A DNA stretch of 64,000 nucleotides from an uncultured Gammaproteobacteria bacterium (GCA_964467155.1 CAYXNZ010000001.1:4070-68069), one strand, 5' to 3'; counted from the first letter of the stretch, positions 14,147 through 58,601 are shown. Made by a program: numbers and translations. The notes: generated by a model from the sequence alone, not told the origin.

Positions 14147-14300
14147 CCCCCCCTCCCTAACCCTCCCCCGCAATAAATTGCAGGAGAGGGAACTATATAT
14201 TTTTTTGAAATTATTTGATATCTATCTATTTTATATTATGCGTATTCCCTCTCCCGTGAGGAACGAGCGGGGGGGGGGTTAGGGAGGGGGGATCCAGAAA
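14147..14300. repeat. long GC-rich inverted-repeat element with an AT-rich core
   Basis: cccccccctccctaaccctcccccgc ... gcggggggggggttagggagggggg form arms of about 25 nt. Inner arms are aggagagggaa / ttccctctccc. The element ends in ggatccagaaaggaatgaca, resembling family-1 ends. Confidence 0.7.
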
Positions 14301-32100: not shown

Positions 32101-33064
32101 AGACGATATTACTCAGGGTTTGCCAAGAGTTGAAGAAATTTTTGAAGCGCGTATTCCAAAAAAACGAGCTTTTATTGCCGACGTTGCTGGTAAAATACAA
32201 ATTGAAACAGCTGAAAGAACTATCGAAGGTGAATTTGGTGACATGGTAGTCATTAGCACGCAAACAAAAATATTAAAGATTTATTATACAGGTGAAGAGA
32301 CAGATAAATATGCCTTTAATGAAATAATGAAAGAAGCTGGCTTAAAAAAGAGTGATAAAGTTGATATGAAAGTTATAGTTAAGAACGAAGAAGAAATAAG
32401 TAAAGGGTCAGCACTTCTCAGTTTGGGTGATAAAATTATTAAAGCTAAACGAGGCGGAAAAGTTAAAGTAGACGATAAATCCATCAAGATTACAACTGAA
32501 GCTGAAAAGGTAAAAGAATTCATCGTGCCAAAGAGTTTTAATATTTGGGTAAAGGATGGAGACATGGTTGAAGTAGGTGATCAGCTCACAGAAGGCAGTC
32601 TAGATCTTCAGCAATTATATAAATTGCGTGGTCGTTTAGCAACTCAGAAATACATAATTAAGGAAATTCAATACGTTTATTCATCTCAAGGACAGCCTCT
32701 GAATGATAAGCATATTGAAATAATTGCAAAACAGATATTTTCTAGAATTCACATATTAGATGAAGGCGATACAGGTTTATTATCAGGTGAAATAATTGAG
32801 AAAGCTGTTTTTGAGAAGACTAACAGAGAAGCAAAAAAAGCAGGCAAAAAACCAGCCAAAGGCGAGTTATTATTGTTAGGTATAACTAAATCTTCTTTAA
32901 CAACTGACAGCTTTTTGTCTTCAGCTTCATTTCAAGAAACAGCTAGAGTATTAATTGAAGCAGCAGTGACTGGTAAAGTTGATCATTTGATTGGCTTGAA
33001 AGAAAATGTGATAATTGGACGGCCGATTCCAGCTGGAACTGGTTTTAAGATTAGTAAAGAATAG
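29135..33064 (+). CDS. rpoC: DNA-directed RNA polymerase subunit beta'
   Basis: It has the zinc-binding CxC...CxxC, the catalytic NADFDGDQMAVH, the trigger loop and bridge helix. A coiled-coil lineage insertion lies near aa 140-300. Confidence 0.98.
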   Translation: MLNPIKTTDFDAIKLKLASPEEILSWSHGEITRPETINYRTQKPEKEGLFCEKIFGPSKDWECYCGKYKKIRYKGIICDKCGVEVTRSAVRRERMGHIKLEAPTTHIWFLRGTSSKIGLILDMTMQALEKVVYFASFIISEVNEDLRQATLDQVKQEFKLKKKSIESEFTKQTSEIKNKKGKFKNEGKDEAEIGEIITQEIDSLETVKNEKIQKLEQALDQAQKELKELKPMAVISETAYQNLSLKYGHIFTAGIGAEAIRKLLEDIDMDKTISALEKELTVCIDSKKEKLVRRLKLLKNLRATEINPAWMVMTVIPVIPPDLRPMVPLDGGRFATSDLNDLYRRIINRNNRLRQLIELNAPEVICRNEKRMLQEAVDALIDNSIRHGKTVVASTGQKRMLKSLADSLKGKQGRFRQNLLGKRIDYSGRSVIVVNPSLKLGECGLPKRMALELFKPFIISKLIKQEIVHNVRSASRYIESGKEEVWDILEEIVKKSYVMLNRAPTLHRLGIQAFRPILIEGLALQIHPLVCTAFNADFDGDQMAVHLPLTEEAVAEARDIMLATHNLLKPATGDPVVAPNQDIVWGAYYMTGLQSEKDENKLKCFSSETEAKLAYSLKKIGLRQLVKVKIGKEIMDTTVGRVIFNEVLPDKLRYVNEVAGKNKVKDIVKKCLRLYGEDTTVKLLDDIKTNSFKYITQSGLSWGIGDLVDFKEKDELIEKANKEAEKIEEQYEEGLLTKSERFGKIIELWTNTKEKVTEICRKELPRDGSIFSMIDSGARGSWAQLTQVLGMKGLVTSPSGEIIELPIKCNFKKGFSVLEYFIATHGVRKGLSDTALRTSNAGYLTRRLVDVAQDVIVVKEDCGDKEGLVINKIESEEMSSSVIKRITGRYLVDDLKNVKGKVLVKVGELVTEEIVEKISKEDIEEAKTRSVLSCKLERGICAKCYGYDLAYNKAVKLGVSAGTIAAQSIGEPGTQLTMRTFHTGGVAGQDDITQGLPRVEEIFEARIPKKRAFIADVAGKIQIETAERTIEGEFGDMVVISTQTKILKIYYTGEETDKYAFNEIMKEAGLKKSDKVDMKVIVKNEEEISKGSALLSLGDKIIKAKRGGKVKVDDKSIKITTEAEKVKEFIVPKSFNIWVKDGDMVEVGDQLTEGSLDLQQLYKLRGRLATQKYIIKEIQYVYSSQGQPLNDKHIEIIAKQIFSRIHILDEGDTGLLSGEIIEKAVFEKTNREAKKAGKKPAKGELLLLGITKSSLTTDSFLSSASFQETARVLIEAAVTGKVDHLIGLKENVIIGRPIPAGTGFKISKE

Positions 33065-33104
33065 AATAATTATAATTTGTTCTTTTATATATAGAACAAA
33101 AAAG

Positions 33105-33136
33105 GCGTCTCAGCTTAAACTGTGGCGTCTTTTTTG
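33105..33136 (+). terminator. probable rho-independent terminator after rpoC
   Basis: gcgtctcag pairs with ctgtggcgt (one mismatch, one GU), followed by T6. Confidence 0.4.
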
Positions 33137-33145
33137 GTTACTTTT

Positions 33146-33175
33146 TGTCATACCGGACCACGATCCGGTATCCAG
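33146..33175. repeat. family-1 half element (left arm only)
   Basis: tgtcataccggaccacgatccggtatccag closely matches the left arm at 8786-8816. No right arm is present. Confidence 0.7.
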
Positions 33176-33202
33176 AAAATATTTTGATATTTTTAGTAAT
33201 AA

Positions 33203-34120
33203 TTATTTTAGATTGTATTTTACTATATTATTTTCTGCCAATTCCTGAATGTATTCTATTTGTTTTTTCCCTCGTTCGGTTTTAAAAAGATGATTAAAAC
33301 GACCTTGTAATTTTAAGTATTCCTCAACTCTTGGTTGATTTTTTGGTGTTTTAATACTTTTAGACAGATTGCCATTTATATATTCAACAGCGGGGTAGTG
33401 ACCTGTTTGAGCAGCTAATTTGGCGACCTTAATTGTTTGATTTGGTTCAATCTTCCAGCCGGGAATACAAGGTACTAATATTTGCAAGTAAGACGGGCCA
33501 GGTGTGTTGATAGCTTTTTTTACCTTTTCAGTAATATCTGCCAGATAACCAGTTGTAGTTTGAGCAACATAGTTTAATCCATGTGCTAGAGCAATCGCTA
33601 GCATATCTTTTTTCCTCAAATGTGAGCCAATTGCATCAATAGTTTTCCCTTTGCCTGATGGTGTGGTGGTGGTGTGAGCACCCCACGGAGTGGCAGTACT
33701 AGCTTGCATGCCAGTATTCATATAAGCTTCATTATCATAACAAACATATAAAATATTTTCACCGCGTTCCCACATACCGCTGATTAAACCAAAGCCGATA
33801 TCAAAAGTTCCACCATCACCTCCTTGAACAACAACCTTTACTTGTTTTTCTTTTTTTTGTTGTTTTAAAGCAGCTGAAATACCAGAAGCAACAGCTGAGG
33901 CATTTTCAAACAGAGAATGAATCCAAGGCATTCCCCAGGCTGATTGTGGATATGGCGTTGAGACAACCTCAAGACAGCCAGTGGCGTTAGATATAATAAC
34001 ATTTGGTCCAAGCGCTTCGGCAACTGTTCGAGCAGCAATGGCTTGTCCGCAACCAGCACAAGCTCGATGTCCAGGCGAAAAGAGAGGTCGTTTAATTGAT
34101 TTTGTTTTGTTTTTTGGCAT
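33203..34120 (-). CDS. porB: 2-oxoacid:ferredoxin oxidoreductase, beta (TPP-binding) subunit
   Basis: PGHRACAGCG, GDGGTFDIGF and a TPP-binding pattern are present. The substrate is not determinable from sequence. Confidence 0.85.
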   Translation of the reverse strand: MPKNKTKSIKRPLFSPGHRACAGCGQAIAARTVAEALGPNVIISNATGCLEVVSTPYPQSAWGMPWIHSLFENASAVASGISAALKQQKKEKQVKVVVQGGDGGTFDIGFGLISGMWERGENILYVCYDNEAYMNTGMQASTATPWGAHTTTTPSGKGKTIDAIGSHLRKKDMLAIALAHGLNYVAQTTTGYLADITEKVKKAINTPGPSYLQILVPCIPGWKIEPNQTIKVAKLAAQTGHYPAVEYINGNLSKSIKTPKNQPRVEEYLKLQGRFNHLFKTERGKKQIEYIQELAENNIVKYNLK

Positions 34121-34141
34121 GCTATTTATAATTATTATTTT

Positions 34142-34354
34142 TTAATTTAATACCGGAATAGTTTTTTTTATATCTTCAATATTTTTTATTTTATTAAATT
34201 GACCTTTGAATTTAGAAGCATTTAATATTTCAATTAAAACTGGTTTTTTATTTTTTGATAAATGAATAATAAAATTACCAAGCTCAATTGCATGATCAAT
34301 TGAATCTTCTGTTATCTCCCAACTCAAAATGTCCGCTTCAATGTCGTAATCCAT
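34142..34354 (-). CDS. DUF2283-like small protein (putative antitoxin-like)
   Basis: MDYDIEADILSWEI...VLIEILNASKF matches the DUF2283 pattern from memory. Confidence 0.5.
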   Translation of the reverse strand: MDYDIEADILSWEITEDSIDHAIELGNFIIHLSKNKKPVLIEILNASKFKGQFNKIKNIEDIKKTIPVLN

Positions 34355-34385
34355 GATATTTGTATTATGTATTTAGTATAATGTA

Positions 34386-34760
34386 TTAAGTATTATTTCT
34401 TAAATATTTAATCAATCCGTTAATTAACTTATGAACGACAACTGTTAATTCTGCTATTTTATCAAATTTATTTTGATCAACATACCCAATATCTAAGGAA
34501 ATTAATAATTGATTTTGTAATTCAGTTAATGAGCCTTGAGCAATATAATAAAATTGCATTTTTTCTTTCGGTGATTGTCTGCTAAAACCTTCAGCGATAT
34601 TTGAAGTTATCGAAACTGCAGCTCTTCTGATTTGGTTAGTTAAGCCGAACAATTCTTCTTTAGGAAAATCTTTAGTTATTCTGTAGATTTCTATGACTAA
34701 TTTATGCCCCTCTTTCCATGCGTTAAGATCAGTAAAAGATTTAATTTTATTATTATCCAT
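34386..34760 (-). CDS. four-helix-bundle protein (23S rRNA intervening-sequence protein family, TIGR02436-like)
   Basis: FTDLNAWKEGHKLVIEIYRITKDFPKEE...QIRRAAVSITSNIAEGFSR...AQGSLTELQNQL. Confidence 0.85.
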   Translation of the reverse strand: MDNNKIKSFTDLNAWKEGHKLVIEIYRITKDFPKEELFGLTNQIRRAAVSITSNIAEGFSRQSPKEKMQFYYIAQGSLTELQNQLLISLDIGYVDQNKFDKIAELTVVVHKLINGLIKYLRNNT

Positions 34761-34780
34761 AATACTTTATACAAAATACA

Positions 34781-35002
34781 TTATACATTTTTGATTGGGT
34801 AAAAAGTAATTATTTTTACAGTGTCCGATTCTTTAGTGTAAATGACACCAATATTTTCTTTGTGTGATATTTGATAAATTGATTTTTTGCTAGTCTGGTC
34901 AGGCACGTTAACAGCATCTTCTATTTGCTCACGGGTGAAATAAACCTTATGTTTGTTTAATGTAGTGAATTTATTTTCAGCGTATTTGGTGAAATAAAGC
35001 AT
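34781..35002 (-). CDS. DUF4258-like small protein (putative toxin-like)
   Basis: It is about 73 aa with a YAENKF...VKIITFYP pattern. The assignment is tentative. Confidence 0.4.
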   Translation of the reverse strand: MLYFTKYAENKFTTLNKHKVYFTREQIEDAVNVPDQTSKKSIYQISHKENIGVIYTKESDTVKIITFYPIKNV

Positions 35003-35020
35003 AAACTCATAATTTAAAAA

Positions 35021-35776
35021 TTATTTATTGGGGCATCCTTCAATTTCACTACACGCTCTTGCATCAAAAACTACATATGGAGACCATGCTTTGCAGTCTG
35101 CTTCTGTGTCTTTTTGAACACATTGACTTATCTTGTCGACCTTATATTTTTTGCAGCAACCCTTAACTTCTATGGCACATTTTTTTGCTGTTGAATCCCA
35201 AAGAGTGCCTTCTCCTCCCCAACCATCCTTAGCTAGTCGATCACATTCAGACCTAGTTACATAACTTTTTCCATTATTTTCATCTATTTTACAACACCCG
35301 ACAACTGTTTTGTTAACTACTGTTGTTTCTATTGGTTTAAACTCAACCAGATTGGGGTTAACTGTATAGAGAATCATGTAAGAGCAGAGAGCCAAAACTA
35401 GACCAGACAATGAAGCAGCTATCCAAGATTTAGCGCTACTGATTCGCTCGTTATTACCGCCAGCCGTAATCCACAGTACTCCGCCAAACATTAAAACAAC
35501 AGCTGCTAATATGCCAACAATGCCTATGGCATATTTATAAATTGCAACGATGTATTTGCTTAATAATGTGCTCTGTAATTTGTCTCCAACTTTTTTACTG
35601 ACATCGTAAGTACCGGTTGTTTTAAAATCATCACCAATTCCAACTTGTGGTTTAAATTGTATTGGGGCCGCCTGAACAGTTTGAGGAGAGCTGATAATAC
35701 AAATTAATCCAACTAATTGAAAAGCAAAAATAAGTAGGAAGGATACAGCTATAATTTTTGGCAACTTGTTGTGCAT
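35021..35776 (-). CDS. VirB2/TrbC-like T4SS pilin family protein fused to a C-terminal cysteine-rich domain
   Basis: It has a signal peptide ending VQA and two TM helices around the loop (AIGIVGILAAVVLMFGGVLWITAGGNNERISSAKSWIAASLSGLVLALCSYMILYTVNP), typical of the CPR pilin family. Ten Cys then follow in about the last 90 aa, with two GCCK motifs. Confidence 0.65.
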   Translation of the reverse strand: MHNKLPKIIAVSFLLIFAFQLVGLICIISSPQTVQAAPIQFKPQVGIGDDFKTTGTYDVSKKVGDKLQSTLLSKYIVAIYKYAIGIVGILAAVVLMFGGVLWITAGGNNERISSAKSWIAASLSGLVLALCSYMILYTVNPNLVEFKPIETTVVNKTVVGCCKIDENNGKSYVTRSECDRLAKDGWGGEGTLWDSTAKKCAIEVKGCCKKYKVDKISQCVQKDTEADCKAWSPYVVFDARACSEIEGCPNK

Positions 35777-35802
35777 AGGTTTTTTAAATTTCTAAATTAT
35801 AA

Positions 35803-35810
35803 ATTATAAT
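35803..35810 (-). promoter_or_regulatory. candidate -10 box (ATTATAAT) for the pilin gene
   Basis: attataat lies about 27 nt upstream of ATG 35776 on the minus strand. This implies a promoter internal to the oxidoreductase operon. Confidence 0.3.
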
Positions 35811-35894
35811 ATCTAATAAATTTTTACTTTGATTTTTTATTTCGTGAATTTTTAATTAATTAACAGTACTTACGTATATTGAAGATTTACAAAT

Positions 35895-37037
35895 TTATCC
35901 AATAAATTCTAATTTATCTTTATTTTTTTTAACATCAGTGATAATATTTTCAATCATTTTTTTTGTGATATCACGACCACCGAGACCGACAATGTAATTT
36001 TTTATTTTTACTTTAATTTTTCCTTGAGCAGTTGCCATGATATCTATGCCCAATGGTCCAGAGCTACCCAGAGAGATAGCTTTGTCTAATACAGCGATAT
36101 ATTTTGCTTTATTAATGACGGATAAAATGGCTTCTTCTGGGAATGGACGATAACATTTTATTTTTAATACACCAACATTTTTTTCTGATTTAATTGTATC
36201 TTTAATTGTACCAACTACCGAACCCATGGCAACAATAATTGTTTTTGGATTTTTCGGACCAGAATATTCTATTAAACCATTGTTATGATTTGAATTCTTG
36301 GTTTTAAATATTTTTTGAAAGTTATTGTATTCCTTATTGATTGTTTTTTGACTATCCGTTAATTTGTCGTGCAAATCTTGGCGAATATCCATGTAATGCG
36401 TTGGTGTAGCCAAATAACCCATAGTAATTGGGTTCTTTGGGTCTAAATATTCATTAGTTTTTGGTTTATAATTAGGTAAATATTTTTTTATTTGTTTTTC
36501 TGTCGGTATATAAACTGGTTCATACGAATGAGTTAAAATAAAACCATCAACATTAACCATGACTGGTAATTTCAGTTGCTCGGCAAGTTTGTAGGCCATA
36601 ATATGTTGGTCAACAGCTTCTTGATGATTTTCTGAAAATAGCATAATCCAGCCAGCGTCTCGGACAGTCATGGCGTCTTGATGATCATTCCAGATACTAA
36701 TTGGAGCTGATATGGCTCGATTAGCACAAGTTAAAACAATTGGCAAACGCATGCCAGCGATATTAAAAATTACCTCAGCCATCAGAAGTAAACCTTGTGA
36801 ACTAGTGGCAGAATAAGTACGAACTCCAGTTGCACTAGCACCAGCGACAATGGAAGCAGCAGCAAATTCTGATTCAGCGCGAACATATTCATAGTTGGCT
36901 TCACCGTCAGCTTTAAATTTTGCCAAGTCTTCTACGATATGAGTTTGCGGAGTGATTGGATAAGCGGATATTACATTTGGTTTTATGTTTTTTATTGTTA
37001 GAGCAATTGCTCTTGAACCTTCTAAAATTTGTTTCAT
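35895..37037 (-). CDS. porA: 2-oxoacid:ferredoxin oxidoreductase, alpha subunit
   Basis: The N-terminus EGSRAIALTIKNIKPNVISAYPITPQT and a transketolase-like pyrimidine-binding domain are present. Confidence 0.85.
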   Translation of the reverse strand: MKQILEGSRAIALTIKNIKPNVISAYPITPQTHIVEDLAKFKADGEANYEYVRAESEFAAASIVAGASATGVRTYSATSSQGLLLMAEVIFNIAGMRLPIVLTCANRAISAPISIWNDHQDAMTVRDAGWIMLFSENHQEAVDQHIMAYKLAEQLKLPVMVNVDGFILTHSYEPVYIPTEKQIKKYLPNYKPKTNEYLDPKNPITMGYLATPTHYMDIRQDLHDKLTDSQKTINKEYNNFQKIFKTKNSNHNNGLIEYSGPKNPKTIIVAMGSVVGTIKDTIKSEKNVGVLKIKCYRPFPEEAILSVINKAKYIAVLDKAISLGSSGPLGIDIMATAQGKIKVKIKNYIVGLGGRDITKKMIENIITDVKKNKDKLEFIG

Positions 37038-37046
37038 ATAATGTTA

Positions 37047-37115
37047 TGTCATTCCCGCGAAAGCGGGAATCTATTTTTTAAATTATTCTGGATTCCCGCT
37101 TTCGCGGGAATGACA
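37047..37115. repeat. family-1 element between porD and porA
   Basis: tgtcattcccgcgaaagcgggaatc ... ggattcccgctttcgcgggaatgaca forms a near-perfect 25-nt inverted repeat. Confidence 0.85.
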
Positions 37116-37149
37116 AGTTTTTTATTTTGATTTTATATTTGCATTATTC

Positions 37150-37440
37150 CTACTTTTTTTCTAATTTCATAATAATAGCTTTGACTGGACATTCCTCCGC
37201 ACATAAACCACAACCCTTGCAATAATTAAGATCAACTTTGGGTTTTAGTTTTCCATTAGTTAATTCCATTTTTATAGCACCCTCTGGACAGAGTCGAGAA
37301 CAGGTCCCACAACCAATGCATTTATCAAAATCAAATTCAGGTCGATTAGTCCGCCAACCACCAGTTTTGTTTTTTTGAGCAGAAGCTGGATAAACTTTTA
37401 AATTTATTTTATTTTTCATAAACTTTATAAGCTTGTTCAA
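37150..37440 (-). CDS. porD: 2-oxoacid:ferredoxin oxidoreductase, delta subunit (2x[4Fe-4S] ferredoxin)
   Basis: CIGCGTCSRLCP and CKGCGLCAEECP motifs are present. Confidence 0.85.
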   Translation of the reverse strand: MNKLIKFMKNKINLKVYPASAQKNKTGGWRTNRPEFDFDKCIGCGTCSRLCPEGAIKMELTNGKLKPKVDLNYCKGCGLCAEECPVKAIIMKLEKK

Positions 37441-37960
37441 TCGCTTTAATATTTTTATTAATAATGATATTACCTTTGTCTTTAAATTTTTCCTTGATAG
37501 CTAATTTTAAAGACGCTAAGCTAACTAGATTTGTAATCTTGGCAAAAGCACCTAGTATGGTGGTATTAACAATATTTTTACCGATAATATCTAGAGCAAT
37601 AGTAGTAGCATCAATAGCGAAAATATTTTCTTTGGGTAGTTTAATTTTTAATTGATTAGTTTTTTTTGCTGTGTTGATTATCACTTTAGTTTTTTCTGAA
37701 CAACCAGTTGACACATCAATAGCATCAAGCAGAGAAGCATCTTGAATAACCAAAATATCTGGTTCATAAATATGTTCACGAGTATTGATTGGTTGATTAT
37801 CAATTCTAACAAAAGATTCGACTGGTGCGCCAGTTCTTTCGACACCAAAAGATGGAAAAGCTTGTGATTGCTGACCGTCCTTGAAGGCAGCGATAGCGAT
37901 TAATTCAGCGGCAGTAACTACGCCTTGTCCGCCTCGCCCATGGATTCGTATTTGGATCAT
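37409..37960 (-). CDS. porG: 2-oxoacid:ferredoxin oxidoreductase, gamma subunit
   Basis: The N-terminus MIQIRIHGRGGQGVVTAAELIA is typical of the gamma subunit. The ORF-track start at 37975 uses an ATG supplied by the tgtcat terminus of the adjacent repeat, so 37960 is preferred. The gene overlaps porD by 32 nt. Confidence 0.8.
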   Translation of the reverse strand: MIQIRIHGRGGQGVVTAAELIAIAAFKDGQQSQAFPSFGVERTGAPVESFVRIDNQPINTREHIYEPDILVIQDASLLDAIDVSTGCSEKTKVIINTAKKTNQLKIKLPKENIFAIDATTIALDIIGKNIVNTTILGAFAKITNLVSLASLKLAIKEKFKDKGNIIINKNIKAIEQAYKVYEK

Positions 37961-37969
37961 AATTTTATT

Positions 37970-38069
37970 TGTCATCCTCGACTTGATCGGGGATCCAGAA
38001 AGTTGTAATATCGGTAAATGGTAAATCTCTAGATTCCCTCCGCCAGTTGGTGGATTCGCGGGAATGACA
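37970..38069. repeat. family-1 element upstream of porG
   Basis: tgtcatcctcgacttgatcggggatccag ... agattccctccgccagttggtggattcgcgggaatgaca. Confidence 0.75.
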
Positions 38070-38077: not shown

Positions 38078-38743
38078 TTAATTTATTAGACCTTCTATAA
38101 TTTGTATAAAAGTATCGTGGGGGATATCACCCTCAACTTTATAACCATTTATAAACCAAATTGGGGTACCCGTCAAACCTAGGCTTTCTCCAGCAGAAAA
38201 ATCTTTTTGAATTTGTGTTAAATATTTTTTTTGTGTTAAACAAGAACTAAATTTATCAACATCAGCTCCAATTTGATTGGCAAGTTCAATTAAATCTGCA
38301 GTTTCTGTTACTCCTTGATTTTGAAAAAGCTTATCGTGCATTAGCCGAAATAATCCTTGTTCACCAGCGCAACGGGCAGTCATAGCTAAGTCAAGAGATT
38401 GTTCAAAAAGAGGATAATCTTTAAAAATTATTTTTACTTTATCTTTATAGTTTACGCTTATTTCTCTAATATTTGAATAGGAATTTTTACAATACGGACA
38501 GGCAAAATCAACAAATTCGACAATGGTAACTTCAGGGTTAGCAGAGCCAAGCCAATAATTGTTATCAGTATTTATGGCAACAGTATTACCAGTTAAATTT
38601 ACATTAGAAGCGTCAATTTTTGCCTTTTCTTGTTTGACTAAATTTATGAAATAAAAAGATAAAGCGACTAAAAGGGTTAGAAATAAAGCCAAAATTAAAA
38701 CGATAATTATGCCCCACCATTTTTTGTACCACGACTTTGACAT
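38078..38743 (-). CDS. membrane-anchored DsbA-family thiol:disulfide oxidoreductase
   Basis: It has an N-terminal TM helix and a thioredoxin-fold active site FVDFACPYCKN (CPYC). Confidence 0.8.
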   Translation of the reverse strand: MSKSWYKKWWGIIIVLILALFLTLLVALSFYFINLVKQEKAKIDASNVNLTGNTVAINTDNNYWLGSANPEVTIVEFVDFACPYCKNSYSNIREISVNYKDKVKIIFKDYPLFEQSLDLAMTARCAGEQGLFRLMHDKLFQNQGVTETADLIELANQIGADVDKFSSCLTQKKYLTQIQKDFSAGESLGLTGTPIWFINGYKVEGDIPHDTFIQIIEGLIN

Positions 38744-45745: not shown

Positions 45746-46420
45746 TTATTCTAATAAAAATTTTTTAAATTCGTTTTTTTGTTGTTTTGAATCGTTTATA
45801 ATTATATTTGTTAATTTTTCGTATTCTTTTGTGTTTTTAAATTGATCGAGAACAATATTTTTATTACAGAGATTACCTTTTCTTAAATTTAAATAATCCA
45901 TATAACTAGACCACGGCCAACTTGTAGCTTTAGTAATATTGTGAATTTCCGAATTGCCGTTAATGTAGCAAGAGACTTTTTGTAATTGACCGTCTGATTT
46001 TATTTCAACAGCTTTAAATGTTCCCTGAAACAATGAGCCTGATCGATTATGTTTGTTGTTAAAATATCTTGTGTAGCCATAGCCTAATTTGTGCATAAAT
46101 TTTGTTATTCCCTCGTTGATAGATTGCTGGACTAATAAATGGAAATGATTTGGTAAGAGCGAATAGCAAATTATTTTTACCAAAGGAATCTTTTTAGAAG
46201 CTAAGCTACTACAAAAAGAATGTTTTTGTAGTAGCTTAGCTTCTTTATCTTTTAATTGTTTTAAGCGATAAATGCTTTCGATTGGATTAATATTATTAAA
46301 TTCACGCAAGCTAATTAAAAATCTTAAATAATCATTTTTATCAAGAAAAATGTTACGTTTATCTACGCCTCGGTTAAAAATATGATAATAGTTATCTGTT
46401 TGAAATTTAATTTTTCTCAT
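45746..46420 (-). CDS. IS200/IS605-family Y1 (HUH) transposase, RAYT-like
   Basis: The start is moved to MRKIKFQ (46420). It has the HUH motif LLPNHFHLLV, a C-terminal Tyr context (SCYINGNSEIH), and WPWSSY. An in-frame hairpin repeat lies at 46196-46244. Confidence 0.75.
   Translation of the reverse strand: MRKIKFQTDNYYHIFNRGVDKRNIFLDKNDYLRFLISLREFNNINPIESIYRLKQLKDKEAKLLQKHSFCSSLASKKIPLVKIICYSLLPNHFHLLVQQSINEGITKFMHKLGYGYTRYFNNKHNRSGSLFQGTFKAVEIKSDGQLQKVSCYINGNSEIHNITKATSWPWSSYMDYLNLRKGNLCNKNIVLDQFKNTKEYEKLTNIIINDSKQQKNEFKKFLLE
46196..46244. repeat. family-3 hairpin (22-bp perfect stem) inside the RAYT-like gene
   Basis: agaagctaagctactacaaaaa / gaatg / tttttgtagtagcttagcttct. It has the same arms as 49149-49193. 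Confidence 0.9.
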
Positions 46421-49148: not shown

Positions 49149-49193
49149 AGAAGCTAAGCTACTACAAAAACTTTTTGTAGTAGCTTAGCTTCT
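49149..49193. repeat. family-3 hairpin, intergenic copy
   Basis: agaagctaagctactacaaaaa / c / tttttgtagtagcttagcttct, with arms identical to 46196-46244. Confidence 0.9.
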
Positions 49194-49952: not shown

Positions 49953-52900
49953 ATGAAAATTAGTCAAATAAGAACAAAATTAATTATTTTTTTAATATTA
50001 TCAATATCTATAATATTGTTTTTTTCTCCATTTATAGGAGTAAAAGCAGCAGATAGTTTTGCGCCATTTCAAATTGAAAAAGGGAGTTTGTCTGGAAATG
50101 ATTTAACAGCTGGCTATAAAATAGAAACTAGAGCTGACGGAACTGAATGGGTTGTTAAACAAGGAGCAATAGAAAGAACAATGAATCAAGTAAAAACCTG
50201 GGCCATTGATGAGGCATGGAAAGAATTAAAAAAATCAAGTGCAGTTGCATTCAAGCAGTCTTTAAAAAAATATCTTAATACTTTGGCTTATGATATGGCT
50301 ACTTATATAGCCACTGGTGACAAAGGACAAGCACCAATGTTTGAAGTTGATAGTTTTGGTGATTTTGTAAGAAATGCAGCGGATGATTATACAGGATATT
50401 TTATAGAAGAACTTGGTAAAAAAGGAATGTGGGGAACTAAATTTAATCTTTGTGAGCCTGATCCGAATGTTAAACTAACGATAAGTCTAGGTTTACAAAA
50501 AATTTCTCGTCCTGATAAGCCGGAATGTACTTTTACAGAAATGAAGAAAAATTGGGATGAAGCTCTGAGTGATCCAAATTTTTTGAATGATTTTCAGGAC
50601 ATGTTTAATCCATGGTCAAATGATTTAGGTATAGCTTTAACGTTACAAACAGGAATGGAAACAGGTGCTAGTCAAGCGGCTGAAGATGCAGCAAACGAAC
50701 GTTTGGAAGGAATGGGTATAAAGGCTAAAACTGACCCAGTAAGTGGAAAAATTAAAACACCTGTAACAATAGTTAGAGAATTTTTTTATAAACCAATAGA
50801 AGATTCATCTGCTTCGGAAAAAATTTTTACAGGTTCTATAGCAGCAGATGTAATTGATGTTTTTTTGAATACTTTGTTGGGCAAATTGGTTGATAAATGG
50901 TTAGACGAAGGTATCGTGACTGATTTTTTTTCAGACAGCAACTCTGCTGATTATACTTATTCTGGTTCTGGTGGAGGAATAGCTGCAGCAAAAGAAAGAT
51001 TTAAAAGTTTAATTGAACCACAGTTTGGTGTTCGGGGTGACTATGATATTTTAGCAGAATTAACGATGTGTTCTGACCCGACTAAAGCTGGACCAACTAA
51101 TTGTGTTATTACAGATAATTTTCGCCAGGCAATTGAAAACCGATTGACGGTTGGGCAGGCGCTAACACAAGGATATTTAAATACGAGTGGAATTTTTGGT
51201 TTTAATGCAGATGGTTTGGAGCCAAATTACAATGAAGGTTATCCGTATCGTTCTATGATAATTTTAAGAAAATTTAGGATATTACCGGTTGGTTGGGAAC
51301 TAGCAGCAGAATATATTAAAGATCATCCAGCAGAGATTGACGGAACAAAAAATTTAGGTGATTTAGTAGCTTGTTATTCAGCTAGCGATGATTATAACGG
51401 GTATTATGCTAATTGGTGTGATGGGCTGGTTGACCCGACATGGGTTTTGAAAGCGCCGTTGAACTATTGTAAGCGCGAAGGTGCTGGACCAGAAATAATT
51501 TCTGAGCAAATTATGGGTGAAGGGTACGACAGCGAATTGACGATATTGAGAGATGACACTTATTGTGCTGATGAGCAGTCCTGCATCCAGGAAAATAGTG
51601 ATGGTTCGTGTAATCTCTATGGCTACTGCACAGAAGAGAGGCGAACATGGAATTTTAATGCTGATTCGTGCGATCCAATTTATAATACTTGTCAGACTTT
51701 CCGTAGTTCAGACGGACAAACAATATCTTATTTAGAAAATACTTTGGATTATGGTATTTGCTCTATTGATAATGTCGGTTGCCAGGCTTATTGTCAGGAT
51801 TACGATAATACAACTGAAAATTACACTTGTACCGAGAGTACTGGTGATAAAATATATTTAGATAGTAATGCCGAAGAATGTTCGGCTGAAAATGAAGGCT
51901 GCCACGAGTTTATTAGAATGAAACCTGGATTGGGTGCAAACATTTTAACTAATTCTGGTTTTGAAGACGATATTGATGGGACGATTTGGCAAGGCGCAGG
52001 AACGCAGGTTTATGATAGTTACGAAGGCAGTCGAGGGTTGGAACTAGTTAGTAATTTATCAAAAACTATTACTTTTGGACCAAATGATTATAATGTAGCT
52101 GGTCAGTATTTTTCCCTATCTTTTTATGCTAAAGATTGTGGTTTGGGAGACAATTTTGAACTAGGTGAGCAAGAAACAGCAACTAGTTTAAATCAAGCTG
52201 AGGATTGGCAATATTATAATACAGCGTATGTTTATTCAACGGATTTTAATTCTAATCAAGTAAACTTTTCTATAAATTCTGATTCTTGCGTGATTGACGC
52301 AATTAAATTAGAACGCGGACAAGTCACTACGACTTATAGTGATTATCGTGGGCAGGGTTTAGTCTATCAAAAATTAGCACCTGATTATTTGTCATGTGAT
52401 GGCGTGGGTGATTCGTCAGCCTGTGATAATTTTGCTCGTACTTGTTTAGAAGATGAAGTTGGTTGTGAAATGTATACTTCAGTCAACGATGATATAAGCG
52501 TGGCAGCAAAAGTTGTAGCACAAGATTATTGTCCGAGTGAATGTGTTGGTTACGATACCTATATTCAAAGTGAGACGATTTTTGATTCTCTACGTGATTC
52601 ATATTTTATTCCAACTACAGCTCAAGTCTGTGGAGCAGAAGCCGTTGGCTGTGATGAATTTACGAATTTAGACGAAGTGGAGTCTGGTGGCGAAGCACGA
52701 GAATATTATTCTTATTTAAGACAATGTATTGGTGTAAATGATAGTCAATGTGCCGAATTTTACACATGGGAAGGTTCTGATGAATCTGGTTATCAATTAA
52801 AAGTTCTGGTGTTAAAAGAAAACCAGACAACCGGCGAGCCAGCATTAACAGAAGATGATTCTACACAATGTAATGAAGCAATTTATAATTTAGACGAAAC

Positions 52901-55900
52901 TGATCCAAGCTATAATACAGATTGTCGACAATTTTACAACAGAGACGGACAATTGTCTTATCATCTCTATACTCGAACAGTTAGCTGTAGTGATAATTGC
53001 CATCCTTATCGTCGAACTGAAATTAATGTCGATCCAGAAATTGTTTTGAGTGGCGAGTGTGTTGGTTCTGATAGACATTGGGATACGCCAACTGCTCAAT
53101 GTGTTGTTTGTAAAAATAGCGGAGAGTGGAGCGACCAACATCAATCTTGTATTTATATGGCTATACCAGGCGAAGGTATGACTTGCGCAGCTAACCAAGC
53201 AGGTTGCCGTGAATATAGTGGTAATACTGGCAATAACATGAGGTTTGTTTTGAACGATGATTTTGAGGGTAGTTTGCAGGACTGGACAGGTGTTAATGGC
53301 ACAACCATTAGTTTGTCCAATGAGTCACTTGTCGTTGGTGGAAATTCATTAGAAATAACAGGTAGCCCATTTACTATAAGTAAAACAGTCGGGCAGAATG
53401 TCTTTAAAGGTAACGCCTATGTTTTAACCTTTAGTGCAAAAGCGAGTAGTGCTTCAGCAATTACTTCAATCCAAATGTCTGACAGTGAAGCTTCAACTGA
53501 TTTTACAACAGTAAATTTGTCTAATGAATGGCAATATTATGAAGTTAATTTAACTAATCTTGACCATGACGTTTTGAGTGACGAAGCGATAGTTATGGAT
53601 GCCGATGGTAGTTTATATATTAATGATATTAGATTAACTGAGATTACTGATCGCTACTATTTAATCAAAAATTCATGGGTAACACCAGACAGTTGTAATC
53701 GTAATATTAAAGGTGAGCCATCTCCTTTATATATGTTAGGCTGTGAAGCTTATTATGACCGAGAAAATGATATACATAATTTACATAATTTTGATTATTT
53801 ATGTGGTAGTTCCGCGGTTGGTTGCGAATTAATGATTGATACGCATAATTATAGCGATTATCAATCAGAAGTATTTAATGAAAATGATGATAGTGAAATT
53901 ACTGTTTTGGCTGATAATTATTCATATATTGTTTATGACTCAAATAAACAATGCAATCAGGATGACAAAGGTTGCCAAAAATTAGGTGAGCCTTATCAAT
54001 ATGAAGATGATTTATTGTATAGTGATAAATATTTAAAAAACAATCCAGATAAATATAATGAAATATTATGTGAAGCAGAAGCAGTTGGTTGTCAGGAATG
54101 GACATCTACTGATGGTACAAATTACTTTAAAGATCCAGGTGATATGGTTTGTCAGTGGCGTCAAGCAGCTGATACGACTGAGCAAGGTTGGGGCTGGTAT
54201 AAGAAAAAAATTAAACGTTGTAATGGTAACGACGGAGATGTTTGTTTGGTTGATAATGATTGTTCAGACGGACAGACTTGCCAAATGGAAACTGAAGATA
54301 TTTCTTGTGCAACAACATATTGGAAAACTTTTGGTTATGGTGGACAAGAATCTCGTATCTATCAACCAGGCGGCGATTGGACCGGTTTATGTTCAGCTAG
54401 TCAAGCTGGTTGTACAGAATATATTGACCCAGTTTCACAATTTAGTTCAAATATTATTTTTAATAATAACTTGGCATCACCTCAAGACGTTGATTCTAAT
54501 GGAATCCCTGATGGTTGGATAAGTTTCGGAGGTGGTTTTAGTCAGGAAGTATCAGCTAATCCTTATACTTTATATCGTTTAAGTAGAAACAGTTTAGCTG
54601 GAAACATTAGTTTAACTTGTAATAATAATATTTATACCTTGGGTAGCAATAATATATTATCAAGCGGAGCAACGACAATTAGCTTGTCAGATGAGAATTA
54701 TAATTCTAGTAAATTAATTTATATATCCAATAATGAATCTTGTGTAATAAATGTGAGTAGTGCCTCAGGTCAAATTGGACTAGCAGAGGCAGTTATAGAT
54801 TATCAATTAAAAGAAGACATTGATAAACAAAGTTGTAATGGCATAATTGATTTTGAAGATGGTTGTGTTTTATTCAATGAACGAGACAGTAGTGGTTCGT
54901 CTTTATCTGGTTTAACTTGGGACGCTGATTTAACTATTTCTGATCAAAGTGGCGTAACTCCACTCGTAGGAGAAGAAAGCAACAGAGATGCTAATGTCAT
55001 AATAAAAGTAACGCCAGATAGAATTTGTGATAAATGGTTGGCTTGTCGTAGCTACATTAAAGATGAAAACGATAATAACGTATGTTTTGATATAGGTTTA
55101 TGTAATAGTGTTGATCCGAATGGTAACTGCAATAGTTTTTTAACAATCGAAAAAGAAAATCAAATTTATCCTGTTGTACTAGATAATTCTGATATTGCTA
55201 ATATGACTGGATATGCTAAAGTCGGTTATTCTAACGGATCAATGGTTAGTGATTATTATTCGTTTGGTGCAATGGAGCAAGAAGGAGAAATGACTAATGT
55301 TGCCAATAGCGGTTTTGAAATAGCTGGTTCAAATGGTTATCCAATTGGATGGATTTGGGAGGGCGGAACGTGGAATGCTAGCGTATTTAAAGTAATAAAT
55401 AATCCAATTGAAACACAGACTGAAGGACTTGGTTATGCACCTGAAGGACAAAACTTTTTAAAACTTGGCTCAAGCTATAATGCAATTAGTGAATTTGTGG
55501 ATGTAGTTGGTGGAACAGCAAATGATCCAATTGAATATATTGTTACCGCCTACATCAATACTCTTAATTTGAAATCAGGTTCAGCCAAAATAAAAATTGG
55601 TTTATATGATAGCGCTGGTAATCATCTAGCTGATGCTTCAATGAACCCAGAAATAACATTAGAGCCTGGTCATGATTGGATATTTAAATTAGGTAGATTT
55701 AATATATCGTCAACAAACGTTAGCCGAATTAAAATTATTCTTTATTCAGATATTGGGACTGAAGGTAATTATTATTTTGATGATATAAAAATAAAACCAG
55801 CCTTGAATTCAAGAGATAGTTGGTACACACCGCAAAGTTGCCGATTGTATCCGCAAACTGATTCTTTGTCGTGTGATTATTATGATAATTCTGGTAAACG

Positions 55901-57518
55901 ACAAAAAGGTTGGTCAGGTTATTGTCTTGAATATGACAGATATCCTGGTTCGGATGATGCTTGTCTTTTGTGGTGGCCAGTTGATAAAGTCAAAGGTGAA
56001 GGTGTAGAGGAAGGAGCAGGATATATTGGAAAAGTACCAGTGTATTATTGCACGGGATTTCAGAGTGGTATTTTAGTTGAGGCCAGAAAAGCTATATGGG
56101 CAAGTGGTTCTTGTAGTTGTCGAGGATATGGAGATGATGATGAATATAATTTAAGTGTTTGTGAAGGATATGGCTGTGAAGATAATATACCAAACGGTTA
56201 TCATGTAGTTGGCACAGGCCATGAGTCTGGCTGTGGGCATGATTGCCCTGGAGGAGGATTACAGAATGCTCGATTTCATCTATATCCAGATTCAGAAGAT
56301 TTTGTTGTTGCTAGTGATGGTTATGATTGGTATAAATATGATGGTGATTTGCAACTAATGGTTGGAAAAGAGACTTGGGATGAAGCTAATCCTGATTTAC
56401 GATTGTACAATCCTGATGATGGCAATTTATATGATCCTAGAATTGCTTGCACTAAAGTTGTTCAAACTGTTACAACAATTGGACAAAATAAATATTGGTC
56501 AGGTCGAGTTTATGAGGGTAGCGATTATGAAACACCATTATCATCCAGAGAATACAGCACAAGAAATTCTCCTTTTGGGTCTATGCAACCTCCTTCCCCC
56601 GTAAATAATCCCTATGAATGGGATGGAATACTTAATACTGAAGATGATAGTTCGGTTCAGCCTGTATATATTACCGTGGATTCAGATTTGGCTAATGCAG
56701 GGACTCCTTACGGTTGTTTAGGAAGTCAGTGTGATAAATTTGGAGTTTGTTCAATTTCAAGAGAGTTGTGTTACAGAGGAGGACTTGAAGCTTCGGGTGA
56801 TAATTTGCGTATGCCCGATGAGTCGTTATTGTGTAATCAAGAAGAAGATTGTGAATATTTTTCCATTAGAGCTAATGGGCAAAAAGAAGTAAAAGGTCTT
56901 TTCGCTCAAAGTTATGGTACATGGGAATGGGATAATAACCTTGGTCGATATAAGATAAGTAATGGTCAAGACTGGGGACCACCAGATAATTTATGCTATT
57001 CTGACGCCACGGGGCCTGATTGTTTACAAAGAACTGGATCATATTCTCGACCAGCTTTTCCTTGTGATTATTGCGCTATTTTACCGAGGATAGAAAATAT
57101 TAGAGTCAACAATAAAAAAAGAGTTATTGGTGAATTTGATGGATTTATAGAATTAACAAAAAGTCAATTCGTTAAGCTGACTTTTAATAGCATAGTTGAC
57201 AGTCAACAGTTGCCTGTGGTTATGTATGCGATTGATTGGGGAGATGGTGAGGAGACAGTAGTGACTGGGGTAGAGATGAGAGCTAGACCAGACGAAAGTA
57301 ATCCTCATTCACTTTATCATTTATATAGTTATTGGGATTTGAAAGCAAAAGATGCTAGCGGAGTGTCTGACATTGATTGTTCAGTTGAAGGTGAATGTCG
57401 GGTAAAACCAAAAATTAAAATTAAAGATAATTGGGGTTGGTGTAATGGTGGTACAGCAATGAATGACTGTGACCAGTGGGTGGATTTTAGTAGTTGGATT
57501 GTAGTGAAGGAAAAATAA
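49953..57518 (+). CDS. giant (2521 aa) secreted cysteine-rich surface protein with CBM-like beta-sandwich modules and a C-terminal PKD-like domain
   Basis: A single uninterrupted ORF with an N-terminal signal/TM segment. The motif C-x5-G-C-x-E-[FYWM] occurs nine times. NSGFE/DDFEG..W modules lie near 51930, 53240, 54450 and 55300. A WGDGEE PKD-like motif lies near 57240. Confidence 0.85.
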   Translation: MKISQIRTKLIIFLILSISIILFFSPFIGVKAADSFAPFQIEKGSLSGNDLTAGYKIETRADGTEWVVKQGAIERTMNQVKTWAIDEAWKELKKSSAVAFKQSLKKYLNTLAYDMATYIATGDKGQAPMFEVDSFGDFVRNAADDYTGYFIEELGKKGMWGTKFNLCEPDPNVKLTISLGLQKISRPDKPECTFTEMKKNWDEALSDPNFLNDFQDMFNPWSNDLGIALTLQTGMETGASQAAEDAANERLEGMGIKAKTDPVSGKIKTPVTIVREFFYKPIEDSSASEKIFTGSIAADVIDVFLNTLLGKLVDKWLDEGIVTDFFSDSNSADYTYSGSGGGIAAAKERFKSLIEPQFGVRGDYDILAELTMCSDPTKAGPTNCVITDNFRQAIENRLTVGQALTQGYLNTSGIFGFNADGLEPNYNEGYPYRSMIILRKFRILPVGWELAAEYIKDHPAEIDGTKNLGDLVACYSASDDYNGYYANWCDGLVDPTWVLKAPLNYCKREGAGPEIISEQIMGEGYDSELTILRDDTYCADEQSCIQENSDGSCNLYGYCTEERRTWNFNADSCDPIYNTCQTFRSSDGQTISYLENTLDYGICSIDNVGCQAYCQDYDNTTENYTCTESTGDKIYLDSNAEECSAENEGCHEFIRMKPGLGANILTNSGFEDDIDGTIWQGAGTQVYDSYEGSRGLELVSNLSKTITFGPNDYNVAGQYFSLSFYAKDCGLGDNFELGEQETATSLNQAEDWQYYNTAYVYSTDFNSNQVNFSINSDSCVIDAIKLERGQVTTTYSDYRGQGLVYQKLAPDYLSCDGVGDSSACDNFARTCLEDEVGCEMYTSVNDDISVAAKVVAQDYCPSECVGYDTYIQSETIFDSLRDSYFIPTTAQVCGAEAVGCDEFTNLDEVESGGEAREYYSYLRQCIGVNDSQCAEFYTWEGSDESGYQLKVLVLKENQTTGEPALTEDDSTQCNEAIYNLDETDPSYNTDCRQFYNRDGQLSYHLYTRTVSCSDNCHPYRRTEINVDPEIVLSGECVGSDRHWDTPTAQCVVCKNSGEWSDQHQSCIYMAIPGEGMTCAANQAGCREYSGNTGNNMRFVLNDDFEGSLQDWTGVNGTTISLSNESLVVGGNSLEITGSPFTISKTVGQNVFKGNAYVLTFSAKASSASAITSIQMSDSEASTDFTTVNLSNEWQYYEVNLTNLDHDVLSDEAIVMDADGSLYINDIRLTEITDRYYLIKNSWVTPDSCNRNIKGEPSPLYMLGCEAYYDRENDIHNLHNFDYLCGSSAVGCELMIDTHNYSDYQSEVFNENDDSEITVLADNYSYIVYDSNKQCNQDDKGCQKLGEPYQYEDDLLYSDKYLKNNPDKYNEILCEAEAVGCQEWTSTDGTNYFKDPGDMVCQWRQAADTTEQGWGWYKKKIKRCNGNDGDVCLVDNDCSDGQTCQMETEDISCATTYWKTFGYGGQESRIYQPGGDWTGLCSASQAGCTEYIDPVSQFSSNIIFNNNLASPQDVDSNGIPDGWISFGGGFSQEVSANPYTLYRLSRNSLAGNISLTCNNNIYTLGSNNILSSGATTISLSDENYNSSKLIYISNNESCVINVSSASGQIGLAEAVIDYQLKEDIDKQSCNGIIDFEDGCVLFNERDSSGSSLSGLTWDADLTISDQSGVTPLVGEESNRDANVIIKVTPDRICDKWLACRSYIKDENDNNVCFDIGLCNSVDPNGNCNSFLTIEKENQIYPVVLDNSDIANMTGYAKVGYSNGSMVSDYYSFGAMEQEGEMTNVANSGFEIAGSNGYPIGWIWEGGTWNASVFKVINNPIETQTEGLGYAPEGQNFLKLGSSYNAISEFVDVVGGTANDPIEYIVTAYINTLNLKSGSAKIKIGLYDSAGNHLADASMNPEITLEPGHDWIFKLGRFNISSTNVSRIKIILYSDIGTEGNYYFDDIKIKPALNSRDSWYTPQSCRLYPQTDSLSCDYYDNSGKRQKGWSGYCLEYDRYPGSDDACLLWWPVDKVKGEGVEEGAGYIGKVPVYYCTGFQSGILVEARKAIWASGSCSCRGYGDDDEYNLSVCEGYGCEDNIPNGYHVVGTGHESGCGHDCPGGGLQNARFHLYPDSEDFVVASDGYDWYKYDGDLQLMVGKETWDEANPDLRLYNPDDGNLYDPRIACTKVVQTVTTIGQNKYWSGRVYEGSDYETPLSSREYSTRNSPFGSMQPPSPVNNPYEWDGILNTEDDSSVQPVYITVDSDLANAGTPYGCLGSQCDKFGVCSISRELCYRGGLEASGDNLRMPDESLLCNQEEDCEYFSIRANGQKEVKGLFAQSYGTWEWDNNLGRYKISNGQDWGPPDNLCYSDATGPDCLQRTGSYSRPAFPCDYCAILPRIENIRVNNKKRVIGEFDGFIELTKSQFVKLTFNSIVDSQQLPVVMYAIDWGDGEETVVTGVEMRARPDESNPHSLYHLYSYWDLKAKDASGVSDIDCSVEGECRVKPKIKIKDNWGWCNGGTAMNDCDQWVDFSSWIVVKEK

Positions 57519-57521: not shown

Positions 57522-57568
57522 GTCTGAACCACTGAAGCACACTGAAAAAACTGAATTACACTGATAAA
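57522..57568. repeat. left inverted repeat flanking the GxxExxY gene
   Basis: gtctgaaccac is followed by reiterated cac(a)tgaa units. It is the partner of 57964-58010. Confidence 0.65.
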
Positions 57569-57660
57569 TATTGAAAATTATGGATTATATTGATGATAAA
57601 TAGTATAAGTCGGATATTACGGCAAAAATAATTAAGGGCGCTTATCAGGTACATAATAAT

Positions 57661-58010: not shown

Positions 58011-58014
58011 GATT

Positions 58015-58596: not shown

Positions 58597-58601
58597 TTTT
58601 A

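Follow-up and report, generated by a model that had tools for sequence, protein, structure and literature searches.

The four subunit genes of a 2-oxoacid:ferredoxin oxidoreductase (POR) lie on the minus strand of a 64,000-nucleotide stretch of DNA from an uncultured Gammaproteobacteria bacterium (GCA_964467155.1 CAYXNZ010000001.1:4070-68069; the whole stretch is hereafter the window), and between the alpha gene porA and the beta gene porB there is a gap of 1,774 nt with four further genes inside it. This raises the question as to how an operon of central metabolism came to be divided in this way. A sequence-only reading of the window had answered with an insertion hotspot, in which four unrelated genes together with an inserted promoter and terminators had come to separate the two subunits. 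Our analysis points instead to inherited gene order for most of the interval. We consider it probable that the window comes from a small-genome Patescibacterium of the Falkowbacteria type, in the Candidate Phyla Radiation (CPR), and that its por cluster has been passed on vertically in an expanded form peculiar to the lineage, in which a pilin gene and a two-gene module (orf73 and a DUF2283 gene) would be ancestral, a cassette with a 23S_rRNA_IVP gene (the IVP cassette) and a palindrome would be recent, and PorB would be supplied by read-through.

The gene order proposed earlier, with four genes between alpha and beta, was confirmed by a list of open reading frames (ORFs) together with Pfam and NCBIfam scans. 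Along the minus strand it runs dsbA, porC, porD, palindrome, porA, pilin, orf73, IVP, DUF2283, porB, with the following features.

38078-38743, minus strand: dsbA-like gene, membrane-anchored thioredoxin fold (Pfam Thioredoxin_4 6e-29, DSBA 2.3e-19)
37978-38069, unstranded: composite hairpin pair in the dsbA/porC spacer, two inverted TTGTCAT-hairpin-ATCCAG units
37409-37975, minus strand: porC, gamma subunit (PF01558 3e-40; NF006321 237.8 bits, cutoff 225)
37150-37419, minus strand: porD, delta subunit, 2x[4Fe-4S] (Fer4 families; PorD_KorD TIGR02179 92.5 bits, cutoff 60)
37047-37115, unstranded: porD/porA palindrome, 69 nt, two GTCATTCCCGCGAAAGCGGGAATC hairpins as an inverted repeat that pairs perfectly (25/25) around a 19-nt loop
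35895-37037, minus strand: porA, alpha subunit (POR_N 2.8e-74 and PFOR_II 1.9e-23)
35803-35810, minus strand: ATTATAAT box in the porA/pilin spacer
35021-35776, minus strand: T4SS_pilin (VirB2-like) membrane protein (PF18895 32 bits, cutoff 26.6, residues 76-138)
34781-35002, minus strand: orf73 (73 aa), first gene of the module, RelE/ParE-type predicted fold, DUF4258-like
34361-34788, minus strand: IVP cassette, a 23S_rRNA_IVP ORF (34386-34760) between inverted repeats, splitting orf73 from DUF2283
34142-34354, minus strand: DUF2283 protein, second gene of the module (PF10049 28.9 bits, cutoff 23)
33203-34120, minus strand: porB, beta subunit with thiamine pyrophosphate (TPP) and a [4Fe-4S] cluster (TPP_enzyme_C 8e-22), intact
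33147-33177, plus strand: single TTGTCAT-ACCGGA...TCCGGT-ATCCAG hairpin in the convergent porB/rpoC spacer
33099-33134, unstranded: A6-stem-loop-T6 hairpin (33062-33208 folded on either strand, z -4.1 and -5.6)

Gene order in the relatives and the genes between porA and porB

In order to place this arrangement among its relatives one genome per species was scanned with PorA, which gave 80 loci (carrying L-numbered labels), and all nine proteins of the window cluster were mapped onto them. Sixty-one of the 80 loci, those with a PorA identity of ≥56%, are Patescibacteria, many of them named Falkowbacteria, and the other 19 are outgroups from Zixibacteria, Ignavibacteria, Chloroflexota and others. 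These outgroups have porC-porD-porA-porB as one contiguous set, with a porA-porB gap of 51-483 nt (18 loci). All 33 complete porA-porB intervals from CPR are by contrast split, over 538-4,050 nt with a median of 1,911. A pilin homologue follows porA in 41 of the 43 CPR loci with enough downstream sequence, while orf73 and then DUF2283 stand just before porB in 20 CPR loci, a layout also seen on independent JGI, ENA and Logan contigs. The order porA, pilin(s), orf73, DUF2283, porB is repeated from species to species even at PorA identities of 62-83%, and the mean identity to the window proteins is 57% for orf73 and 62.5% for DUF2283, compared with 61% for PorD and 67% for PorA. Synteny continues outward, with xth, a CBS-domain gene (cbs) and the 873-aa orf873 upstream and a convergent rpoC downstream, and a dsbA-like gene lies upstream of porC in nearly all CPR loci.

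Because the split order is shared by the CPR relatives while the outgroups are contiguous, the pilin gene and the orf73/DUF2283 pair are, as judged from this comparison, ancestral to the clade and not recent insertions. In a neighbour-joining (NJ) tree of PorA the loci with a pilin only are basal and those with pilin, orf73 and DUF2283, including the window, make up the crown group. On the reading that we favour the pilin would have come in between porA and porB when the CPR por clade arose, orf73/DUF2283 would have joined as a module later, in the crown group, and purifying selection on both would since have matched that on the enzyme subunits approximately in strength. The comparison of por synteny that had been suggested as a check of the hotspot thus gave a divided outcome, with three of the four intervening genes in the same order in relatives, which is what the sequence-only reading had itself named as refuting it, and with the IVP cassette and the porD/porA palindrome as recent additions.

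The four por genes are intact and, going by their best models, of the pyruvate type. The Pfam domains of all four subunits score far above gathering thresholds. At the stricter equivalog level PorC passes NF006321 and the others fall below their cutoffs (PorB 350.9 vs 405, PorD 96.9 vs 120, PorA 456.8 vs 550, the last to PorA_Arch as top NCBIfam match), although the best NCBIfam models of PorA, PorB and PorD are Por models and the score exceeds the cutoff of TIGR02179, a model for the subfamily. The whole of PorB can be aligned with the beta subunit of a four-subunit pyruvate:ferredoxin oxidoreductase (PFOR) of known structure (PDB 9bt4_C, E 6e-89), and in this alignment keeps the CAGC, TGCLEV, GGDGGTFDIG...DNEAYMNTG and PC motifs, while PorD has two CxxCxxCxxxCP motifs. 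Translation of porC probably starts at the ATG at 37960, giving 183 aa; the NF006321 alignment begins at residue 6, and the gene call on a contig identical to the window is likewise 183 aa. With this start the hairpin repeat that had been described as abutting the gamma start, and which we find to be the composite pair at 37978-38069, does abut porC with no overlap. For porD the ATG at 37419 is the most likely start since homology begins at that methionine and independent gene calls give 89 aa, and the overlap with porC is then most likely 11 nt and not the 32 nt read earlier. The 64-kb window holds no second por copy. A 2x[4Fe-4S] ferredoxin-like frame at 7181-7333 (plus strand), 39% identical to PorD over 54 aa, is a possible electron acceptor for POR.

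The first of the intervening genes encodes a pilin which, with its topology read from the sequence, has a signal peptide, two transmembrane (TM) helices and an extracytoplasmic tail in which 12 of the 115 residues are Cys. All 41 pilin homologues located between porA and porB are rich in Cys (4-30, mostly in even counts), and among relatives there is wide variation in sequence as well as in copy number, which is 1-2 with additional copies after porB. Adjoining the pilin gene no gene of a type IV secretion system (T4SS) was identified in a window annotation that is partial, several large ORFs having no Pfam match.

For orf73 the AlphaFold2 (AF2) model, built from 43 homologues, has a predicted local distance difference test (pLDDT) score of 92.5, and the top ~45 Foldseek hits against the PDB are all RelE, YoeB, YafQ or ParE toxins (template modelling score 0.55-0.68, E ~7e-3). 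It is thus predicted to be a toxin-type protein with a RelE-type fold. The protein has zero Pfam matches of its own, so the DUF4258-like label given to it earlier stands only in part, through its relatives: 6 of 18 match DUF4258 weakly (best E 7.8e-4), and NCBI names a few relatives DUF4258. The orf73 family has 921 members and is tightly similar. No PDB sequence was matched significantly in profile searches with orf73 and DUF2283, and literature searches on DUF4258 with DUF2283, DUF2283 with antitoxin and GxxExxY returned nothing relevant. In relatives with an empty orf73/DUF2283 junction 0-10 nt lie between stop and start, and in L022 the two genes overlap as ATGA. Because of the RelE-type fold and the abutting genes in relatives we read orf73 and DUF2283 from their sequences as one toxin-antitoxin-like module, with DUF2283 presumed to be the antitoxin-type partner. 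The four genes once called unrelated would accordingly resolve into a pilin gene and one two-gene module split by the IVP cassette. The pair may have been domesticated, since its vertical inheritance at one site is long, which is unusual for such modules.

Mobile cassettes and hairpin repeats

Two features of the window cluster stand apart from this inherited order. The ORF of the IVP cassette encodes a four-helix-bundle protein (PF05635 133.6 bits; TIGR02436 129 bits), and its arms, at 34759-34788 and 34361-34396, are 30-36 nt long and 80-83% complementary, abut the start and stop codons of the ORF and exceed in length every other inverted repeat of the window. The flank duplex has a free energy of -24.3 kcal/mol (z -5.9) and the stem is kept in both the minimum free energy (MFE) and the centroid folds. 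Across loci the flanks of IVP genes are similarly complementary (median dG -21.8, z -3.6, with 8 of 13 below -3), whereas those of orf73 (-9.3, z 0.5) and DUF2283 (-11.0, z 0.1) are not. The arm sequences are unrelated between cassettes, each consisting of degenerate 7-8-nt units, and yet they remain complementary. The orf73/DUF2283 site is empty in L008, L004, L022, L038 and L069, and across genomes IVP genes occupy five slots, namely dsbA/porC, porD/porA, porA/pilin, orf73/DUF2283 and DUF2283/porB. The closest homologue of the window IVP (70%, in L003) sits in a different slot, and the IVP in the same slot of the nearest genome (L001) is just 36% identical with unrelated arms. By these comparisons the cassette is recent in the window genome. 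GC content is lower, at 25-28%, over orf73, IVP and DUF2283.

The second feature is the porD/porA palindrome, whose reality as a repeat had been claimed from the sequence and is upheld here, with 0 matches in 100 shuffles and an RNA fold of -47.9 kcal/mol (z -11). It forms the core of a ~108-nt lineage-specific insertion. L001, L051, L065 and L008 lack it, with 4-28 nt from the stop of porD to the start of porA, and on this sequence evidence it too is recent. The composite pair in the dsbA/porC spacer has in contrast decayed: 13 nt are inserted in the loop of one hairpin, and the stem of the other has one mismatch. Its orthologues in L001 and L008 are intact pairs, and judged by sequence it is the older of the two. 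The half repeat reported after beta proved to be the single hairpin at 33147-33177, and analogous hairpins lie downstream of porB in L004 and L008. Both the window and the relatives have further TGTCAT-stem-ATCCAG elements between other genes, and their stems differ but stay complementary.

Several such repeats lie elsewhere in the window. An inverted TTGTCAT-stem-ATCCAG pair (8787-8817, plus strand, and 8843-8873, minus strand; stems ATGCCGGA and ATTCCGGC) occupies the spacer in which a UvrC-like gene and a gene for a class II tRNA synthetase converge. At 14148-14291 there is a GC-rich nested inverted repeat, CCCCCCTCCCTAACCCTCCCCC / GGGGGGGGGTTAGGGAGGGGGG, with 100 nt between its arms, in a genome of ~32% GC, with a folding energy of -87 kcal/mol (z -5.6). 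Since ATCCAG...AATGACAG comes next, it may be a large variant of the TTGTCAT/ATCCAG family. Two identical perfect 22-nt palindromes (AGAAGCTAAGCTACTACAAAAA / TTTTTGTAGTAGCTTAGCTTCT) at 46196-46244 and 49149-49193 belong to a separate repeat family. An Rfam search at gathering thresholds and a tRNA scan of the whole window returned nothing, and there was no rRNA match.

The IVP cassette has counterparts of other kinds. PDDEXK_3 (GxxExxY) or GIY-YIG ORFs occupy other expanded spacers, and the pilin-porB interval of other genomes holds HigBA, Phd/ParE-like and RelE-like pairs and in one case a Y1 transposase. The orf73/DUF2283 junction is in some genomes filled by IVP, PDDEXK_3, HigBA or Phd/ParE-like genes or by ORF-less hairpins. 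The last were seen in L007, L010, L013, L019, L021, L025 and L052, reaching -55 kcal/mol with z -4 to -13, and the hairpin arms of L007, L010 and L052 (gctaatctgcgaataaatgctaatc) resemble those of PDDEXK_3 cassettes in L003 and L012, a sharing that parallels the relation of miniature inverted-repeat transposable elements (MITEs) to autonomous elements. The Y1 (IS200/RAYT-like) transposase lies within the porA-porB interval of L014 (10042-10584) and is flanked by GC-rich hairpins (CTCCATG...CATGGAG) with a flank duplex of -43.8 kcal/mol.

A census of cassettes (IVP, PDDEXK_3, GIY-YIG) over the CPR loci counted ~21, every one sense-oriented, in 270 kb of por clusters and 4 in 389 kb of flanking sequence, a density ~7.5-fold that of the flanks (binomial P 1.3e-5). 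On this evidence the cluster has long accumulated small selfish elements. The idea of an insertion hotspot is therefore retained for the cassettes, which are enriched and of which IVP uses five slots, and for the recent palindrome, and is given up for pilin, orf73 and DUF2283, which are ancestral on the comparison above. Because three further cassettes lie elsewhere in the window the por cluster is a favoured site but not a unique one. These are an IVP gene at 61947-62312 (cassette 61905-62345, plus strand; arms 61905-61934 / 62316-62345, 87% complementary), a PDDEXK_3 gene at 57661-57963 (cassette 57539-57981, plus strand; arms 57539-57572 / 57948-57981) and another IVP gene that runs off the window end (63795-64000, plus strand). 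They sit, at 57-64 kb, among ORFs without a Pfam match; four co-directional ORFs (198, 817, 283 and 466 aa) at 58000-63754 have zero Pfam matches at E <= 0.001, and a 2,521-aa ORF at 49953-57518 precedes them.

With a view to finding variation at the population level we looked at 11 contigs from several ENA and JGI samples that are 100% identical to the window; all carry the cassette and palindrome, and no presence-absence polymorphism of either was seen among them. Contigs identical to the window are present in ENA ERZ27315495, ERZ27315522, ERZ27315831 and ERZ27315536 and in JGI 3300025586, 3300022855 and 3300005915. Apart from a twin of L001, a metagenome pattern scan for strain-level variants gave nothing. 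Two short contigs of different samples (L091 and L092), 100% identical to the window, both begin exactly at 34387, where the 3' arm opens with the first base past the IVP ORF. This break hints, and is suggestive only, at an assembly branch or an alternative allele at the cassette boundary.

We tentatively propose, as an idea to which we give somewhat less than even weight, that inverted-repeat ORFs of the IVP, PDDEXK_3/GxxExxY and GIY-YIG types and the ORF-less hairpins form one class of mobile cassette, similar to intervening sequences (IVSs) and extending beyond rRNA genes. Such cassettes would sit in sense orientation in junctions of strongly transcribed protein-coding operons, with the por cluster a preferred site in Falkowbacteria-type CPR and with the pilin and the domesticated RelE-like pair as fixed passengers.

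Transcription of the cluster and competing explanations

How PorB is expressed behind the intervening genes depends on the signals between them. The gaps from pilin to porB are 18, 20, 31 and 21 nt, all on the same strand, and at 18-31 nt they leave no room for an intergenic promoter before porB. A pattern scan of 34120-35895 found no terminator-like site on the sense strand, and a promoter scan found 22 sites against 26 +/- 6 in shuffles, hence no excess, so that the inserted promoter and terminators of the sequence-only reading were not borne out. The short gaps and the lack of terminators suggest that pilin to porB are co-transcribed. The only terminator-like structure of the cluster is the hairpin at 33099-33134 after porB, likely a bidirectional intrinsic terminator common to porB and the convergent rpoC. 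The 118-nt porA/pilin spacer is unstructured, and the same gap is ≤44 nt in at least 9 of 41 relatives. The box noted before the pilin gene is present, as ATTATAAT at 35810-35803, and may be a -10 element or just AT-rich leader; a similar TATAATTTATAAT is found in L002 and a degenerate form in L001.

Under the explanation that we favour the genes from pilin to porB, and probably those from porC onward, would form one transcript ending at the terminator common with rpoC. PorB supply would then depend on read-through of the embedded genes and not on adjacency to porA, and pilin and cassettes would profit from the transcription of a core fermentation operon. Just two features would be recent, the IVP cassette in the orf73/DUF2283 module and the porD/porA palindrome of two GTCAT hairpins; both would belong to genome-wide families of small selfish elements that settle in sense orientation at junctions of co-directional gene arrays and are dense in the por cluster.

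A number of observations weigh against this explanation. The phylogeny is a simple NJ tree in which a few pilin-only loci nest inside the crown, and the conserved order may come in part from generally frozen regional synteny and not from selection on the arrangement. In L043, L045, L049 and L054 dsbA-porC-porD is inverted relative to porA-pilin-porB. The test of cassette enrichment ignores the density of junctions in por clusters and the relatedness of the genomes, and the window overall, with 4 cassettes in 64 kb, has a similar density. The porA/pilin spacer may contain a promoter, given the partial conservation of the TATAAT-like motif in L002, and promoters inside coding sequence are possible as well. 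In the inverted loci xth separates dsbA-porC-porD from porA-pilin-porB-pilin, giving two divergent por units, which implies that a single por transcript, or strict co-transcription of the four subunits, is not obligatory in the clade.

That the four genes arrived by one or more recent insertions into a contiguous operon, with a promoter and terminators of their own that porB expression tolerates, seems to us very unlikely. The contiguous porCDAB of the non-CPR outgroups, the lower GC over orf73, IVP and DUF2283, the ATTATAAT box and the recent cassette and palindrome would all fit such a history, but the same order is found in at least 20 species-level relatives (62-83% PorA identity) and on metagenome contigs, orf73 and DUF2283 are conserved like PorD, and neither the terminators nor an excess of promoter sites over shuffles was found. 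Inherited order could alternatively reflect function, with selection keeping the pilin (and DsbA, oxidising its Cys tail) and the RelE-like/DUF2283 pair co-regulated with pyruvate oxidation or acting upon it, for example where host-contact structures are tied to fermentative energy metabolism or where a RelE-like protein tunes por mRNA. The adjacency of porA and pilin persists even where porC-porD is inverted away, the slot pilins all have Cys-rich tails with dsbA as a conserved neighbour, orf73 and DUF2283 are under purifying selection, and among the contigs examined the 921-member orf73 family occurs only in a por context. We nonetheless hold coupling of this kind to be unlikely. To our knowledge there is no physical or biochemical link from VirB2-like pilins or RelE-like proteins to POR; the flanking genes are equally syntenic, so that conservation of order is not specific to the cluster, and the pilin varies widely in sequence and copy number. 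Co-inheritance of DsbA and pilin was considered as a sign of a functional link and rejected, because in the inverted subgroup dsbA travels with porC-porD and not with the pilin.

A further explanation concerns the RNA, in that RNase III might cut the IVP stems and the palindrome as it does in the IVSs of 23S rRNA, splitting the mRNA and decoupling porC-porD, porA and porB. The architecture of a long stem enclosing an ORF is shared with rRNA IVSs, the IVP family is known from CPR rRNA insertions (PMC11270868), the palindrome offers a perfect 25-bp stem, the arms differ among cassettes with complementarity kept, and the cassettes are all sense-oriented. Against this, the arm mismatches of 20 cassettes on the sense strand comprise 22 G-U and 36 A-C; with G-U not in excess of A-C, selection on the arms at the RNA level is unsupported. 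Terminal inverted repeats acting at the DNA level fit the data equally well, and ORF-less copies with the arms of ORF-bearing ones look like MITE-type DNA elements. We therefore regard RNA processing as doubtful, and the inherited, expanded cluster with recent small elements as the probable account.

On that account most of the apparent insertion is ordinary inherited gene order, and the genes for the subunits of a core enzyme can in CPR stay apart, split by unrelated genes, for very long. Pathway calls that expect contiguous por genes may miss or mis-split the enzyme. A surface pilin tied lineage-wide to the main fermentation operon is a lead on the expression of contact structures in host-dependent cells, while the por cluster offers a natural set of filled and empty sites for palindrome-bounded cassettes (IVP, GxxExxY, GIY-YIG).

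Likeness to known systems

The cluster is a lineage-specific variant of a well-known operon, and the newer lead is the occurrence of sense-oriented palindrome-bounded cassettes outside rRNA genes. With the four-subunit PFOR operons (porCDAB/porGDAB) of archaea, Thermotoga and others it shares the same subunits, cofactor motifs and gamma-delta-alpha-beta order. Those operons are contiguous, whereas alpha and beta are 1.8 kb apart in the window (0.5-4 kb across the clade) with a pilin, a toxin-antitoxin-like pair and cassettes between them, and one CPR subgroup, unlike those operons, has gamma-delta on the opposite strand.

VirB2-like pilins in variable tandem arrays have been described as a feature of Patescibacteria, in a report that does not mention a placement inside the por operon (bioRxiv 10.1101/2025.01.22.634366). 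The window gene has in common with these pilins PF18895, the signal peptide, two TM helices and, in relatives, 1-2 divergent tandem copies, but it lies among enzyme subunit genes and not near virB4, and it has a long Cys-rich C-terminal tail.

In type II RelE/ParE modules, which like HigBA may be toxin-first, there is a match to orf73 in predicted fold and in the small partner that abuts or overlaps it in relatives, and bona fide HigBA and Phd/ParE-like pairs share the porA-porB interval in other genomes. The orf73/DUF2283 pair differs in being fixed at one site clade-wide and conserved like enzyme subunits, and in tolerating insertions between its genes, and DUF2283 is without a solved relative.

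The hairpin repeats recall repetitive extragenic palindromic (REP)/MITE-like repeats such as Rfam RF02625 WsnRNA46 (Wolbachia) and RF02748 FtrB (Francisella), with TGTCAT...ATCCAG termini, an 8-bp GC-rich stem and frequent occurrence as an inverted pair. The layout of the RF02625 consensus is the same as that of the window repeats, although the porD/porA palindrome scores 46.8 bits against a gathering threshold of 65.3 and so is not a member, and no associated transposase, RAYT (REP-associated tyrosine transposase) included, was found in the window.

The closest parallel to the cassette itself is the 23S rRNA IVS with an IVP ORF, and IVP proteins have been reported in CPR 16S/23S rRNA insertions (PMC11270868). 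Both have PF05635 and inverted repeats able to form a long stem. The window cassette lies however between protein-coding genes and not in rRNA, with no sign of selection on the stem at the RNA level, and here ORF-less derivatives and PDDEXK_3 or GIY-YIG versions use the same slots.

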